A stretch of 64,000 bases of DNA from Candidatus Bathyarchaeota archaeon (GTDB lineage Archaea; Thermoproteota; Bathyarchaeia; Bathyarchaeales; Bathycorpusculaceae). The translations under genes were made by a program, and so were the position numbers. Positions 11,067 to 64,000 of the stretch are shown here, in pieces (position 1 is the stretch's first letter; the number at the start of each line of letters is the position of its first letter). Location: the NCBI GenBank assembly GCA_963717465.1, contig OY970340.1, positions 2,336,001 to 2,400,000 on the forward strand. The letters are read 5' to 3'. Below the pieces are notes generated by a model that was given only the letters and a program-made list of their open reading frames with translations, made no database searches and was not told the DNA's origin.

Positions 11067-11852
11067 TTAGACAAATCCTTCTTTCCAAAGACTGTTAAAG
11101 TAGAATTCACATAAATTTATAATGTTTTTGTTGGATGACCAAAATGCTGCTGAATCAAAATTTTCTGCTGGCGTAGTGTTAATTACAACTTCTTCGCTAT
11201 CAAATATTCCCATTGCAGTAATAGGAGTTTCTTTAACAAACCTTACCTGGTAATTCTCATAAGGACTTACATGTTTTCTGATTTCGTTTCTTAATTTTTC
11301 ATTAGAAGGATAACAAATTATAACCTTACAATCAACATTCCTTGATAATGCATCATTTAGAATTGCGTTATACTCGTCAGGTGGCAAAACCACCTTCTCG
11401 GTCGCAATAATGGAACGAATGGTTTTTTTGACATTCTTAAGAATCTTTTTGCTTCTAATGTAAAATGTTTCTTTAGGAATAATGCTGATTGTGAATTCGT
11501 CAGGGTCTTTCCTTTTTTCAGAGGCTCTTTCGCCTACTTGTTGAATAAGAAGTGGGATTCTTTTTTTGATTTCAGCGAGATCCTTCATTTTATTTTGCAT
11601 TAAAATCGATGTGGATGCCTCTAACGGGGTTGCTTGATATTTAGTTGGCTTGCCAATAATTCTCTCTACAAGTTGAAGCTCTTCAAGCTGCGCAATTATC
11701 CGATAAACGTCCGGTCTTGAGACCCTAGAAAGAGCTGAGATTGTTTTTGCCGTTACAAAATTTTGGGTTAAGAGTGCTAAGTATACTTTAGCTTGTAAAG
11801 CAGTTAAACCAAGATCTACCAATACAGATGAAGGCTCATAATCATTGACCAT
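11067..11852 (-). CDS. TrmB-family transcriptional regulator
   Basis: LGLTALQAKVYLALL...SRPDVYRII wHTH plus a C-terminal effector domain (IFDSEEV). Confidence 0.9.
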   Translation of the reverse strand: MVNDYEPSSVLVDLGLTALQAKVYLALLTQNFVTAKTISALSRVSRPDVYRIIAQLEELQLVERIIGKPTKYQATPLEASTSILMQNKMKDLAEIKKRIPLLIQQVGERASEKRKDPDEFTISIIPKETFYIRSKKILKNVKKTIRSIIATEKVVLPPDEYNAILNDALSRNVDCKVIICYPSNEKLRNEIRKHVSPYENYQVRFVKETPITAMGIFDSEEVVINTTPAENFDSAAFWSSNKNIINLCEFYFNSLWKEGFV

Positions 11853-12085
11853 AGCGCTTGCCTGCTACAAGCTGATGAACATTTGAGTGATTATAAATAT
11901 TTTTCCTAAAAATAAGGAATGCAAGAGCTTTTAATTAATGCAAAAATGATGCAAAATTCGTTTAGAATCATAACGTGCCATGTGTCATAATTAAGCCATA
12001 ATACTTGCAAAGAGAAATTGAAAACTGAAATAAATAAACTAATTAGCGTGACACACAGTAATAGCGTACTTTCACTTTTTTTGGG

Positions 12086-12188
12086 TTGGGGTTAAGGGGA
12101 CTATTATGGAAAGGGGACATGTTTTTCCATCAAATGTCAGTATTGTTCTATTCAAGACATAGAATGAAAATAGTCTTTCCCTCCCCAA
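12086..12188 (-). ncRNA. BHB-closed structured RNA cassette A (predicted 84-nt excised intron/circle)
   Basis: Minus strand UUGGGG-AGGG-AAA-GACUAUU ... AAUAGUC-CCCU-UAA-CCCCAA: 3-nt bulge, 4-bp helix, 3-nt bulge. Two internal hairpins. Confidence 0.65.
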
Positions 12189-12214
12189 TCTATGCAGGCT
12201 TAATTTTTTTCAGG

Positions 12215-12331
12215 TTGGGATTTAGGGAACTATTGCGGGTATGAACTTGAACCCGTCTCGAATACCCACAAGATTCGAGACTTAAAAGATGATAGTCTTT
12301 CTACGAAAGATGATAGTCTTTCCCTTCCCAA
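12215..12331 (-). ncRNA. BHB-closed structured RNA cassette B (predicted 98-nt excised intron/circle)
   Basis: Minus strand UUGGGA-AGGG-AAA-GACUAU ... AUAGUU-CCCU-AAA-UCCCAA. Compensatory G-C to A-U change versus cassette A; internal hairpins. Confidence 0.65.
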
Positions 12332-12348: not shown

Positions 12349-12364
12349 TACTCAATATTGAGTA
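12349..12364. promoter_or_regulatory. Perfect 16-bp palindrome TACTCAATATTGAGTA
   Basis: Seen directly, just 5' of cassette B on the minus strand. Operator or RNA hairpin. Confidence 0.45.
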
Positions 12365-12506: not shown

Positions 12507-13082
12507 TTAATTCTCGACGAAGTTCTGTAGATTCCTATTTAAATCTAAAGCTACTTCTTCGGTAGAGTTATTTGAGTTTATAATAATCCACTTGTCGTAG
12601 CGTGTTAGCGAAAGAGCTTTAGTCCTAACCTTTTTTAAGGATTCTAAACTCTCGAACATTTCAGTTTTTTCTCGGTTTTCATTTATACGAACTGCTGCTA
12701 TTTCAGGGTAAACATCCAAAAAGAACAGGTTTTTTGACTTTGGTACTAATGAAGAAAAGAAATTGTATGCAATTAAGTGCAACGGTGATGGTAAGTAAGC
12801 GGTTCCCATTAGGTATCTAACAAAGATTATGAAATCCAGTCGTCGCCACGAATAAAGAAGAATTGATCGTACCACATCTATCATGTAGAATAGAGCTGAA
12901 GCGAAATGAGCGCTTTTGCCTTGTGAGTACAAATAAAAGCGTGCTTTAATGCCAAACCAATTATCAGTTTCTGGATGAATACGTAAACAAGCTGTCTTAT
13001 TTTTTTCTTTTAACGATTTTAGCAAAAGCTGAGATTGCGTGCTTTTGCCTGACCCATCCAAGCCGTCAATAATTATTAACAC
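12507..13082 (-). CDS. tmk: Thymidylate kinase family protein
   Basis: IIIDGLDGSGKSTQ P-loop, FLDV.PE. VRY replaces the usual DRY motif. Confidence 0.75.
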   Translation of the reverse strand: MLIIIDGLDGSGKSTQSQLLLKSLKEKNKTACLRIHPETDNWFGIKARFYLYSQGKSAHFASALFYMIDVVRSILLYSWRRLDFIIFVRYLMGTAYLPSPLHLIAYNFFSSLVPKSKNLFFLDVYPEIAAVRINENREKTEMFESLESLKKVRTKALSLTRYDKWIIINSNNSTEEVALDLNRNLQNFVEN

Positions 13083-61106: not shown

Positions 61107-61194
61107 TTGATGTTTTAATAAAAAATCCGCTAAAACCCGCTGAAGAACCCCTTAGAAACTTCAAAAACTACAGTGTCGAATACCATTAGGCAAG

Positions 61195-61268
61195 GGCCGA
61201 GGCAGGGATTTGAACCCTGGCAAAAGGCTCCACAGGCCTCTAGGCTACCAAGCTACCTCACCTCGGCC
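61195..61268 (-). tRNA. tRNA-His(GUG) with genomically encoded G-1, no intron, CCA not encoded
   Basis: Acceptor GCCGAGG/CCUCGGC, discriminator C, anticodon loop CUGUGGA (61231-61233), T-loop UUCAAAU. Confidence 0.95.
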
Positions 61269-61347
61269 ACTTTTCCATGCCAAACAATGTCTTCGGCCGC
61301 TTTTCACTAACTTCAGCTTAAGCTTCTTAAGTTTCATAGCATCGCCT

Positions 61348-62667
61348 TTATTTTCTTTTACGGAAGATTTTTCCTCCATCATTGTACTCTCCTGTAATAT
61401 ATTCGAATCCTACCTCGATTAGTTTGCATGCGTCTTCAGCGGTAAATGCCAAGCGTGTTATGAATTGGTCATTCGGCAAGGTTTTAAAGAGGTTCTTTTC
61501 CAGTTGAACGTACAGCCTGGTGTTTTCTATGTTCTTATGGCCAAGGAATTCAGCAACAAGAAGGATATCCGGTGTGTAATGATAGAGCATTGTTCCTTTC
61601 CAATACCTAAAAGTATGCATGTGAATTTCTTTAAGGCGTGGATTCCCAAGTCTGAAAGCTAATTTATTTCTAGTCCTGCAGAGTTGATTCTTCAGCACAT
61701 TCAATGTCATTTTGCCAAATACTAGCTCACTATCTCGCGGCAAATTGCTAAGCATGTTAAGCAGTTTTCCGCTCAGATCGCTAAAGATTCTCGCGTTACT
61801 TCCTTTCTCGGGACAATTGCACATTATAACTCTTCTTTCTAAGTCGACGTCTTTCCAAGGAAGAGCAATAACTTCGCCTCTTCGCATTGCAGTTTCTTTA
61901 AGCAGTTGCAGGAAAGTGGCCAGTATATTCGGTGATCCAGCAATTAGATCGTCTATTTCTTGCTCGGTTGGAATAAATGGGTTTTTGCGGATAATCTCAT
62001 ATATCGGTGCGTCCCAAGATAGCCCAATGAACTTTAAGAAGTCAGTGTAAGCATTGATCACGTTTCTTTTTCGGCTGCCACTCCAAATTTTACCATTGAA
62101 AGCCGTTTCTATGTTGGACTGTTTTGCTATGACTTCTTTCACTGTTTCAGGATCTGCCAGGTTAGCGCCTCTAGAGATCAGCGTTCTTAAAACTGAGCTG
62201 CTTAAGCGTATGGTCGAGTCCTTGTAGCCTTGAAGCTTCATTTTAACTTCAAATTTTAATAGCATGCCTTTGACGTCTTTTTCATCACTCGCAACAGTCT
62301 TAAATTCTGCTGCGGTAGCCAAATTTTTCGTTGTCTCCTTTTTCTCCTCAACATCAACGCATATTTGGCGATTGCTTCTTTGCCCTGCAAACCTTAAATA
62401 ATTTTCCGAGAACCTACGCCCGCAATCAGTACATTTTAGAATACTTGTTTGTTTACCATCACCAAGCTTTCTTGAGCCATTATGCACTGTTCTGATACTG
62501 CCACATTCAGGACACTTTAAATCGGCTGTAACCTGAAGGTTTCGGGTAGGCTGAAGTTCATTTGGGAGCGCCTTAGCGTCGACTTGGAGGCGGCCAGAAT
62601 CAACGCTACTGCCAGAGCCTAAGAAGTGGTTAGCAAGCGCTTTTCCCTGAGCTTCAACCTCAACCAA
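61348..62667 (-). CDS. Tyrosine recombinase/integrase with an N-terminal Zn ribbon
   Basis: CPECGS...CTDCGRRF; catalytic R (AMRRGE), K (EKG), HTFR, LGH, Y (TRLY). Confidence 0.93.
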   Translation of the reverse strand: MVEVEAQGKALANHFLGSGSSVDSGRLQVDAKALPNELQPTRNLQVTADLKCPECGSIRTVHNGSRKLGDGKQTSILKCTDCGRRFSENYLRFAGQRSNRQICVDVEEKKETTKNLATAAEFKTVASDEKDVKGMLLKFEVKMKLQGYKDSTIRLSSSVLRTLISRGANLADPETVKEVIAKQSNIETAFNGKIWSGSRKRNVINAYTDFLKFIGLSWDAPIYEIIRKNPFIPTEQEIDDLIAGSPNILATFLQLLKETAMRRGEVIALPWKDVDLERRVIMCNCPEKGSNARIFSDLSGKLLNMLSNLPRDSELVFGKMTLNVLKNQLCRTRNKLAFRLGNPRLKEIHMHTFRYWKGTMLYHYTPDILLVAEFLGHKNIENTRLYVQLEKNLFKTLPNDQFITRLAFTAEDACKLIEVGFEYITGEYNDGGKIFRKRK

Positions 62668-62668
62668 A

Positions 62669-62875
62669 CTAACAAGAGCCTCCAGTACTGCTTAATGAAA
62701 AATCCTGTAACGCAACACTAAAATCAGGTATAGAATTTGCGACATTTTGCGGCAAATAAGGATTCTCAACAACCGCTGGAACTTGTAACGCAAACCTTAA
62801 TTCGTTAAGAAATTTTGCACTTTTTTGCACCAAAAGGGGCATTCTGCAAATTAGGTTATCGTTACAGTTCTGCAT
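62669..62875 (-). CDS. Element hypothetical protein
   Basis: Overlaps the upstream ORF and abuts the integrase start. Confidence 0.45.
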   Translation of the reverse strand: MQNCNDNLICRMPLLVQKSAKFLNELRFALQVPAVVENPYLPQNVANSIPDFSVALQDFSLSSTGGSC

Positions 62876-63113
62876 TCAGCCCCAGCTCCTTAAATTCTGC
62901 TGCCTTTTCAGCCCATTCTAGCCATTTTTTTGTTTTTCCTTTTCCGTTACAAATTCTTTCAGTGGCAAGGTGGTCTTTTCTGGACAAAACTGGACAAAAT
63001 CCGACAAAATCCAACACTGTTATTGCGTTACATGCAAAATTTGCTAATCTCGCATACCCCCGTTTTCCCTCAAAATACCACAAATTCTTAGGCTTACCGT
63101 TACAGCATTGCAT
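62862..63113 (-). CDS. Element hypothetical protein
   Basis: Coupled overlapping ORF with a GAGGA SD. Confidence 0.55.
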   Translation of the reverse strand: MQCCNGKPKNLWYFEGKRGYARLANFACNAITVLDFVGFCPVLSRKDHLATERICNGKGKTKKWLEWAEKAAEFKELGLNAEL

Positions 63114-63513
63114 CGCGGCTTTCCTCCTCTGTGATGTTATGTGAGGTTTCCTGTTTCTCCTCTAATTCACTGTTTGATAGGTCAGGTAATGCAATTGGAA
63201 TCTGGTCCTCTAATGGCTCTGCTACTGGTTGCAGTTGGCGCCACATAGCATTTTCAACCGAGCCTATAGGCGGCCTTACAGTTTGGCGAGCTCGGAAGAA
63301 ATAAACCCGGTGTTTCGAAGAGCAGAATTTAGCGCGGCGAGTACGAGCTGGAAAATTAGTATGACAGAAAAGGCATGTTGCCATTAACGCATCCTTGTGT
63401 TTTGTGACGTTTTGTAACAATTCAGTCTGCAGAATCTCTTTTTGCGTTACATCGCTTGTCGAGGTTAGTTCATTTGAACTTACCCTTCCAGTTGAGACGC
63501 TGGGTGTAGTCAT
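63100..63513 (-). CDS. Element Zn-finger DNA-binding-like protein
   Basis: CLFC..F.....AKFCS..HR....R motif typical of mobile-element proteins. Confidence 0.65.
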   Translation of the reverse strand: MTTPSVSTGRVSSNELTSTSDVTQKEILQTELLQNVTKHKDALMATCLFCHTNFPARTRRAKFCSSKHRVYFFRARQTVRPPIGSVENAMWRQLQPVAEPLEDQIPIALPDLSNSELEEKQETSHNITEEESRDAML

Positions 63514-63514
63514 T

Positions 63515-64000
63515 TCAAGCGGCCTCTTCTATTGGATCTTTATCTTCAAAACTTACACCTTCAGGATAAGCAGCCTTCCAAACTGCATTGTTGAATTTCT
63601 TTTTCAAATCATTAAAGCATGCGTCACATCGTCTAAGAGTATCCTTTTCTGGGGTTACTATTTCCTTAGTAATTGCAAGTTGACTGCAGGCTTCACATTT
63701 TTCCCCGTCCTTAATTTCCTTAACCCAAAAAGTCGGCTTTGTAGCGAGTGTATCGAGTGTATCAGGTGGGTATATACTCTTATTTTTAGATTCTTCACTA
63801 CTCTCTATTTTAGAGAGAGTAATAGGAGTCGCTACAGTCGCTACAGTCGCTACAGTCGCTACAGTCGCTACATCTAAGCTTTTCTGAGATGCCTCGCTTT
63901 TTTTAGCATAAGTAACATTCATGTAAACATGAATTCCTGCTTTTCCGTCGATTCTTTGTGTGGTTTGGATGACTTGAGGAATTTGCTTTGTTAATTCTTG
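63515..64000 (-). CDS. C-terminus of a larger protein, possibly a primase/helicase replication protein
   Basis: The frame is open from 64000 (QELTKQIP...RIDGKAGIHVY) through ATG 63922; (VAT)5 repeat and two C-terminal CxxC pairs. Confidence 0.6.
   Translation of the reverse strand, partial: QELTKQIPQVIQTTQRIDGKAGIHVYMNVTYAKKSEASQKSLDVATVATVATVATVATPITLSKIESSEESKNKSIYPPDTLDTLATKPTFWVKEIKDGEKCEACSQLAITKEIVTPEKDTLRRCDACFNDLKKKFNNAVWKAAYPEGVSFEDKDPIEEAA
63740..63872. repeat. Opposed 9-bp repeat arrays (iteron-like)
   Basis: GTCGCTACA x5 at 63828-63872; inverted degenerate copies TGTAGCGAG, TGTATCGAG, TGTATCAGG at 63740-63766. Confidence 0.85.

Follow-up and report, generated by a model that had tools for sequence, protein, structure and literature searches.

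We studied two bulge-helix-bulge (BHB) units, A and B, which lie in tandem, in minus-strand orientation, in the gap separating a thymidylate kinase gene (tmk) from a TrmB-family regulator gene in a 64,000-nucleotide stretch of a Candidatus Bathyarchaeota genome (the window; positions without a prefix refer to it). The tandem feature at 12086-12331 is real and has the canonical 3-4-3 geometry, i.e., a 4-bp helix with two 3-nt bulges. Judging from their arms, A and B appear to be members of a family of cassettes usually found at the translation start of mobile-element genes. In our preferred reading, to which, taken with the full mechanism at the locus, we assign a probability of about one half, they would be free-standing, non-coding BHB cassettes of this lineage-specific family, working as RNA through the splicing endonuclease EndA. 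What would be new is EndA-type BHB processing in the form of a portable cassette on mobile-element gene starts, with a predicted silencing logic and with free-standing copies.

Units A and B and their surroundings

The genome of the window (G000, 3.05 Mb, Bathyarchaeia) was compared with 119 other genomes of the genus. The features of the locus were the following:

12507-13082, minus strand: thymidylate kinase gene, upstream of the units (Pfam PF02223)
12349-12364, strandless: perfect 16-bp palindrome directly upstream of B (from sequence)
12215-12331, minus strand: unit B, free-standing BHB cassette; outer stem of 6 bp with A-U replacing G-C, helix AGGG/CCCU
12325-12322 with 12227-12224, minus strand: helix of B; inner stem of 6 bp including one G-U pair (12318-12228)
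12222-12319, minus strand: predicted excised insert of B, 98 nt (from sequence)
12322-12306 and 12301-12285, minus strand: 17-nt direct repeat at 21-nt spacing, duplicating the 5' splice region of B
12204-12210, minus strand: A7 tract after B (from sequence)
12086-12188, minus strand: unit A, free-standing BHB cassette; outer stem of 6 bp, helix AGGG/CCCU, 3-nt bulges, inner stem of 7 bp
12188-12183 with 12091-12086, minus strand: outer stem of A; helix AGGG at 12182-12179 with CCCU at 12098-12095
12178-12176 and 12094-12092, minus strand: bulges of A
12093-12176, minus strand: predicted excised insert of A, 84 nt, with 2 stop codons in the family's frame
12076-12082, minus strand: A7 tract after A (from sequence)
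11067-11852, minus strand: TrmB-family regulator gene, downstream of the units (Pfam PF01978)

A first-pass annotation had given coordinates, stems, 4-bp helix and 3-nt bulges for both units, and all of these were recovered by sequence inspection and folding, as were the outer-stem exchange of G-C for A-U, both A7 tracts and the G-U pair of unit B. The canonical BHB cut falls after the second bulge nucleotide, and the insert sizes of 84 and 98 nt were reproduced at the positions listed. The units had also been placed outside tRNA and rRNA, in agreement with ARAGORN and Rfam, which reported only tRNA-His within the window; by the same two programs, the flanks of A and B form neither a tRNA nor an rRNA that an intron could interrupt. 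The direct repeat in B had been overlooked. The arms of A and B were identical at 18 of 19 and 16 of 19 positions (34/38 in all) and the interiors at 34 of 65 aligned positions, the level of shuffled sequences (p 0.33, or 0.056 without the direct repeat), a difference with a Fisher p of about 1e-4; the earlier description of conserved arms around free interiors thus stands. The family's frame in A and B has stops and lacks a start, with no gene after either unit.

No run of five or more T was found on the minus strand between the tmk stop and the units, and therefore read-through from tmk could transcribe them. The TrmB-family gene has its own TATA-like box near 11897. The palindrome upstream of B, one of 61 perfect 16-bp palindromes in the genome, is a possible operator. 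The tmk gene was found in 22 relatives; in all 15 of these whose downstream DNA was inspected, the neighbouring genes differed from those of the window and no BHB unit was seen downstream of tmk.

A loosely defined BHB is by itself no better than chance, since a genome-wide search gave 130 canonical matches and 140 with mirror geometry. When 734 intergenic matches were ranked by motif energy, A was fourth and B seventh. At -14 kcal/mol or below there were 13 canonical and 12 mirror matches, the latter being in part canonical elements read from the opposite strand, and three other geometries gave 3, 0 and 6. The same scan recovered, as positive controls, the BHB in cbf5 and that of a tRNA-Met intron, and it yielded three more cassettes, named C, D and E, of which C follows cdvC and E precedes tuf. 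The top of the energy list was held by a long, strong intergenic inverted repeat (G000:C1:3043925-3044091, plus strand) with predicted offsets of 2 nt rather than 3 nt. The short intron in cbf5 lies at G000:C1:771076-771113 (minus strand), and a tRNA-Met-like gene with a BHB intron and more insertions, absent from the ARAGORN list, at G000:C1:2524944-2524987 (minus strand) and onward; ARAGORN also reported two tRNA-SeC genes in this genome. The helices of these introns are CUCU/AGAG in cbf5 and CUCA/UGAG in tRNA-Met, and thus the G-rich arm of A and B is not simply an EndA requirement. G000 encodes two EndA-family genes (PF01974) and an RtcB (PF01139).

Energy alone did not fix the strand, because the plus strand folds more stably (-35.8 kcal/mol for A and -42.6 for B) than the minus strand (-26.8 and -40.0, respectively). 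The choice of the minus strand as sense, made in the first-pass annotation, is now backed by relatives, in which the motif runs in the same sense as the genes that bear it. Folding of each unit alone gave BHB probabilities of 0.26 for A and 0.06 for B, and in a 340-nt transcript the pair probability of the central helix was 0.11 for A and 0.99 for B; in these models the BHB is not always the dominant fold.

Searches for direct copies found the A/B pair in none of the 119 other genus genomes, by pattern, DNA or covariance search. Exact A/B termini had no match in viral contigs and none in genome contigs (exact matching with a single gap of 55-85 nt); two exact-terminus matches in metagenomes, inside a bacterial gene and without the outer stem, were rejected, as were nine viral matches to a looser pattern, also without the outer stem. 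Over the 119 genomes, the 5'-arm pattern gave five other matches, none folding as a cassette; BLAST-type searches, short matches only; a covariance model from A and B (R3), five weak matches, none with a BHB; and the two-arm pattern, three other matches, two due to chance and one real, in an integrase gene of the relative G078 (see below). The copy count suggested earlier as a check thus ended at two in the genome itself and no pair in 119 relatives. As the pair was not found in those genomes and no BHB unit was seen downstream of tmk in the 15 relatives inspected, there is no orthologous covariation at the A/B locus. None of the five elements A to E, and none of six leader loci, matched an Rfam family. 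Fourteen nucleotides of the 5' arm of A are identical to the integrase leader L265 of genome G013. An intergenic hairpin in another genome (L042, G114:C4, near 712860-712935) has the 3' end of A and a C/U-rich loop like that of element C, in a fold other than the canonical BHB geometry.

A cassette family in integrase leaders and its probable free-standing members

The real two-arm match in G078 has altered inner and outer stems that nevertheless pair, and it falls within the opening codons of a gene for a Zn-ribbon tyrosine integrase, part of an element at tRNA-His. The window holds a homologue of this integrase (47.6% identity), about 50 kb from A and B, and a canonical BHB occupies the first codons of both genes; their N-termini have little in common beyond the residues encoded by the BHB arms. 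The window's own element comprises:

62558-62650, minus strand: family member in its usual setting, BHB in the first integrase codons; helix GGGA/UCCC, outer stem of 3 bp followed by a mismatch
62562-62641, minus strand: predicted insert of the integrase leader, 80 nt
61348-62667, minus strand: Zn-ribbon and tyrosine integrase (PF00589, phrog_1)
61194-61267, minus strand: tRNA-His, the integration site (ARAGORN, Rfam)

This element of about 17 kb sits at the 5' end of tRNA-His (61194-64000 in the window, continuing to genome position 2413974). Besides the integrase it contains a large gene upstream; its far end is marked by a repeat, about 30 nt long, of the tRNA-His 5' end at genome positions 2413948-2413974. 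Its BHB is weaker than the strong ones of the family and was outside the top 12 of the arm profile (see below); in silico, splicing would leave a 9-codon peptide.

The nearest integrases carry the names Bathyarchaeota and Ca. Bathycorpusculum, and homologues were found in 58 of the 120 genus genomes. A set of 85 tyrosine integrases from elements integrated at tRNA genes was assembled from 30 loci, 60 proteins whose match started within about the first 50 residues and 2 extra ones, leaving out 2 duplicates and 5 without a detectable Zn ribbon. A BHB of -15 kcal/mol or stronger was present at the 5' end in 21 of the 85, against one in the mirror control, one antisense and none inside the gene; seven other combinations of helix and bulge sizes gave 0-4 of 85 on the same windows. 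About three quarters of the integrases examined are therefore without a strong BHB, and on a quick tree of 82 proteins the cassette was scattered, with at least 13 changes. The elements that bear it sit at tRNA-His, Leu, Cys, Pro and Ala.

An alignment of 16 cassettes showed pairing in 96.4% of its cells and changes to both partners in 7 of 14 pairs; none of 500 shuffles reached these values, and sliding the partners lowered pairing to 44-59%. These covariation counts overstate the number of independent events, as the BHB scan itself had selected the cassettes and many of them are related. Among 47 distinct arm pairs the central helix was AGGG/CCCU in 20, GGGA/UCCC in 16, GGGG/CCCC in 3 and GCGA/UCGC in 2, with six single forms; in the GGGA form the register is shifted by one base and the 3-4-3 geometry is retained. 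A family model, R2, had about 180 matches in all, spread over 75 of the 120 genus genomes, and in a class-wide sample searched with strict filters it matched 8 of the 15 genomes belonging to the same family and none of the remaining 135. Sixty of its lower-scoring matches were inspected: 38 precede an integrase, 16 a small protein recognized by motif (and two more by eye), 3 other proteins, and 1 has no open frame. A coding sequence thus lies downstream in 59 of the 60 sampled cassettes, and no long arrays were seen. At least 16 of the 60 cases have the small protein, some 150 residues long, behind the same leader (L310, L322, L339, L362 and others); it has no confident Pfam and no PHROG match, and the nearest Atlas clusters are mostly viral hypothetical proteins.

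The link of A and B to this family, overlooked in the first-pass annotation, comes from two models made from other genomes. R2, built without any G000 sequence and run unfiltered on the window, placed A and B at exactly the coordinates annotated before, with 26.4 bits (E 1.9e-5) and 21.8 bits (E 3.7e-4), followed by the integrase leader in third place (13.7 bits, E 0.064); scaled roughly to the genome, these E-values become about 0.001, 0.02 and 3. Run over G000, an arm profile made from 47 cassettes that all came from outside this genome ranked A first (36.4 bits), B second (24.2), C third (22.0) and E fourth (20.2), with a fifth match at 19.5 on the antisense strand inside a gene; the control maximum was 13.0 bits in the reversed genome, the 'reversed' and 'complement' controls being one and the same. 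R2 matched A and B through their arms only and left the interiors unaligned, and the two units fit the family by arm consensus and by an insert length of about 75-125 nt. Filtered R2 searches of the genome missed A and B, and sequence-only profiles found neither these nor the held-out leader of the window's own integrase.

The three other cassettes from the intergenic scan of the genome are these:

G000:C1:1636775-1636858, plus strand: element C, 3' of cdvC (L066); BHB-like, predicted 69-nt circle, U-tract, C/U-rich single-stranded loop
G000:C1:1960594-1960685, minus strand: element E, upstream of tuf (L067); free-standing cassette
G000:C1:768779-768893, plus strand: element D, intergenic (L068); BHB probability 0.70, internal UUCG hairpin, weak R2 match

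Element C follows cdvC in 30 of 30 genus loci, with the single-stranded loop conserved in all 30, showing that non-coding cassettes can be kept. Its helix is invariant, hence there is little covariation, and the outer stem is often open; Rfam had no match for it and no antisense target was found. A model of element C, R1, matched 15 of 15 family genomes, with weak matches in 5 of 135 others, and had no match to A or B in their own genome at E 10. Element E was present at tuf in 1 of 30 loci, not at this position in 29 relatives, and was thus discarded as a conserved RNA; its 5' arm resembles leader L321 of G056, and it may be a decayed leader. As R2 matches C and E, the arm signature is common to element leaders and host cassettes, and common descent of the two groups seems likely. 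The fit of the arm consensus to the conserved host element behind cdvC speaks, however, against taking a descent of A and B from element leaders in particular as settled.

Predicted outcome of splicing and rival readings

In all 23 integrase cases the unspliced frame ran through the insert without a stop. Among 36 further BHB-positive matches, 12 had an ATG at the 5' splice site and 16 a start upstream (15 of them with a frameshifting insert); in the others no start was found (2), a stop lay in the insert (2) or the downstream frame was short (4). After in-silico splicing, an upstream in-frame ATG was kept in 6 of 55 cases, the median open run being 7 codons; productive splicing into upstream frames was rejected on this count. 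The length of the insert modulo 3 comes largely with the open frame by inheritance and was not counted as separate support. Because insert frames are open and few in-frame ATGs remain after splicing, the unspliced mRNA would be the coding form and splicing non-productive, so that splicing would probably switch the mobile-element genes off.

In the mechanism that we propose, the 5' end of a mobile-element gene, in most cases an integrase gene, would be folded by the cassette into an EndA substrate that takes in the ribosome-binding site, the start codon and the first 25-40 codons. The unspliced mRNA would yield protein. Should EndA cut both bulges and RtcB ligate the ends, the start codon would be lost or the frame shifted, and a circle of about 75-125 nt would be set free; the host splicing machinery would thus act as an off-switch. 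At the A/B locus, EndA would make four cuts in a minus-strand transcript, arising by read-through from tmk or from a local promoter; two circles, of 84 and 98 nt, would result, and the transcript would be interrupted ahead of trmB. Since the reading frame is lost but the arms are kept, A and B most likely function as RNA. That the arms are intact while the frames are dead and the interiors no longer recognisable speaks for selection acting on the RNA. The geometry, the similarity of the arms, the covariation in relatives, the open unspliced and non-productive spliced frames and the presence of EndA and RtcB were observed, whereas we infer transcription, cleavage, circularisation, the off-switch role, the origin from leaders and selection at the A/B locus.

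If A and B were neutral relics, i.e., tandem 5' ends of mobile-element genes whose arms were inherited and are no longer selected, one would understand why the pair occurs in one genome only; tandem leaders with differing interiors do exist in elements (L151, and two adjacent R2 matches in G132:C279), and the cassette upstream of tuf, likewise confined to a single genome, resembles a decayed leader. The family frame after A, moreover, reads V-x-V-R-Y, like the start of the small protein that follows 16 of 60 cassettes, in a test chosen after the match had been seen and with a background of 123 in 83,562 windows. We nevertheless consider this explanation rather unlikely, as the arms are intact, show a compensatory change and give the top scores of the genome despite stops and interiors without detectable similarity, and a protein profile gave no remnant of the small gene at A/B. 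The array proposed in the first-pass annotation, where circles are the product and a scaffold carries variable guide or antisense cargo, agrees with conserved arms around free interiors, with the conserved single-stranded loop of the host cassette behind cdvC (30 of 30 loci) and with an exact 23-nt match, in the same sense, between the interior of A (12143-12165) and the coding sequence of a Dam-like DNA methyltransferase (L002, G013:C43:14573-14595; E 8.7e-5 per genome, about 0.01 over 120 genomes). A homologue of that methyltransferase is, however, absent from G000, where no antisense or sense target and no guide match rose above background; there are two units only, with no effector gene nearby, and the inserts of integrase cassettes matched their own tRNA/att regions no better than background (longest match 7.56 versus 7.59 nt, 18 loci), so that guide pairing with att sites and antisense targeting in G000 were both dropped. 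The variable cargo is accordingly improbable. As for guide RNAs of the C/D or H/ACA type, Rfam gave no match, and by eye A shows one CUGA and a weak C'-like box only.

A hairpin for translational control or a protein-binding site, BHB-shaped and uncut in vivo, could hide the ribosome-binding site: the 5' arm is itself Shine-Dalgarno-like, an ATG lies in the bulge in many cases, and cutting would destroy the mRNA. Blocking, on the other hand, needs no two 3-nt bulges around exactly 4 bp, and yet other geometries are rare on the 85 windows and the register slide preserves 3-4-3; we judge such a hairpin very unlikely. Folded single-stranded DNA recombination sites (attC-like) or MITE ends, with an integrase swapping gene starts, would account for one leader being fused to integrases, to the small virus-like protein and to winged-helix-like proteins, but they are scarcely credible given a geometry that is exactly that of EndA, a coding sequence downstream of nearly every sampled cassette and the want of long arrays. 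The MITE alternative, which the first-pass annotation had itself named, meets two copies only and no visible target-site duplication. The attC comparison was dropped because the GTT box, judged by eye, is oriented the wrong way, and replication-origin boxes and a G-quadruplex, which A and B resembled by eye only, were also set aside.

Beyond the preferred reading of A and B as RNA cassettes, a wider scenario may be drawn, held tentatively and with the odds somewhat against it: elements of the Bathycorpusculaceae would tie integrase and other genes to EndA through a portable 'poison' BHB intron, EndA would set latency and a drop in EndA would induce the element, and the host would have domesticated the cassette as circular RNAs (A, B and the cdvC element). 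If true, archaeal genes would be regulated by splicing that is non-productive, EndA would have a regulatory role beyond the maturation of tRNA and rRNA, and the latency of elements might have its switch; one genus holds about 180 predicted mRNA substrates on mobile-element genes, with an inverted logic in which splicing would silence. Each cassette predicts exact junctions and a short in vitro substrate, and is thus directly testable. The importance of units A and B themselves is lower until expression is shown.

Comparison with known splicing-endonuclease substrates

A search of the main texts of openly available papers found no report of BHB motifs in integrase leaders or of units A and B. 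The permuted SRP RNA of Thermoproteus is reportedly a stand-alone RNA made circular by BHB processing; unlike it, A and B have no Rfam match and no conserved interior. Archaeal tRNA introns and the processing stems of 16S and 23S rRNA are described as giving excised pieces that are circularised (PMC12558985). A and B share the 3-4-3 BHB with them, but no tRNA or rRNA surrounds the units and their helix differs from that of the G000 tRNA-Met intron. The same source describes the omega-RNAs of IS200/IS605 elements in archaea, which are circular, linked to mobile elements, devoid of a BHB and accompany TnpB (PMC12558985); the cassettes, in contrast, have a BHB, accompany tyrosine integrases and show no detectable guide.

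Closer to the leaders are introns in mRNA. In cbf5, splicing is needed to restore the reading frame. The intron of the cbf5 pre-mRNA is described from Crenarchaeota (PMC2738675), and the cbf5 gene of G000 carries a BHB at the matching place. The cassettes differ in that the unspliced mRNA codes and splicing would destroy the start or the frame; their inserts are longer and their hosts are mobile elements, and A and B, unlike cbf5, are non-coding. A 2020 study names only cbf5 and the HVO_1309 leader as known archaeal mRNA substrates of the splicing endonuclease (PMC7714728). The latter, an intron in the 5' UTR of HVO_1309 in Haloferax volcanii, is a BHB intron in an mRNA leader; it has been detected in circular form, and EndA cleaves it in vitro. 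This intron is 46 nt long, wholly untranslated and confined to one gene, whose expression seems to benefit when the intron is removed (PMC7714728). The cassettes described here form instead a multi-copy family lying over the start codon, with the opposite predicted effect.
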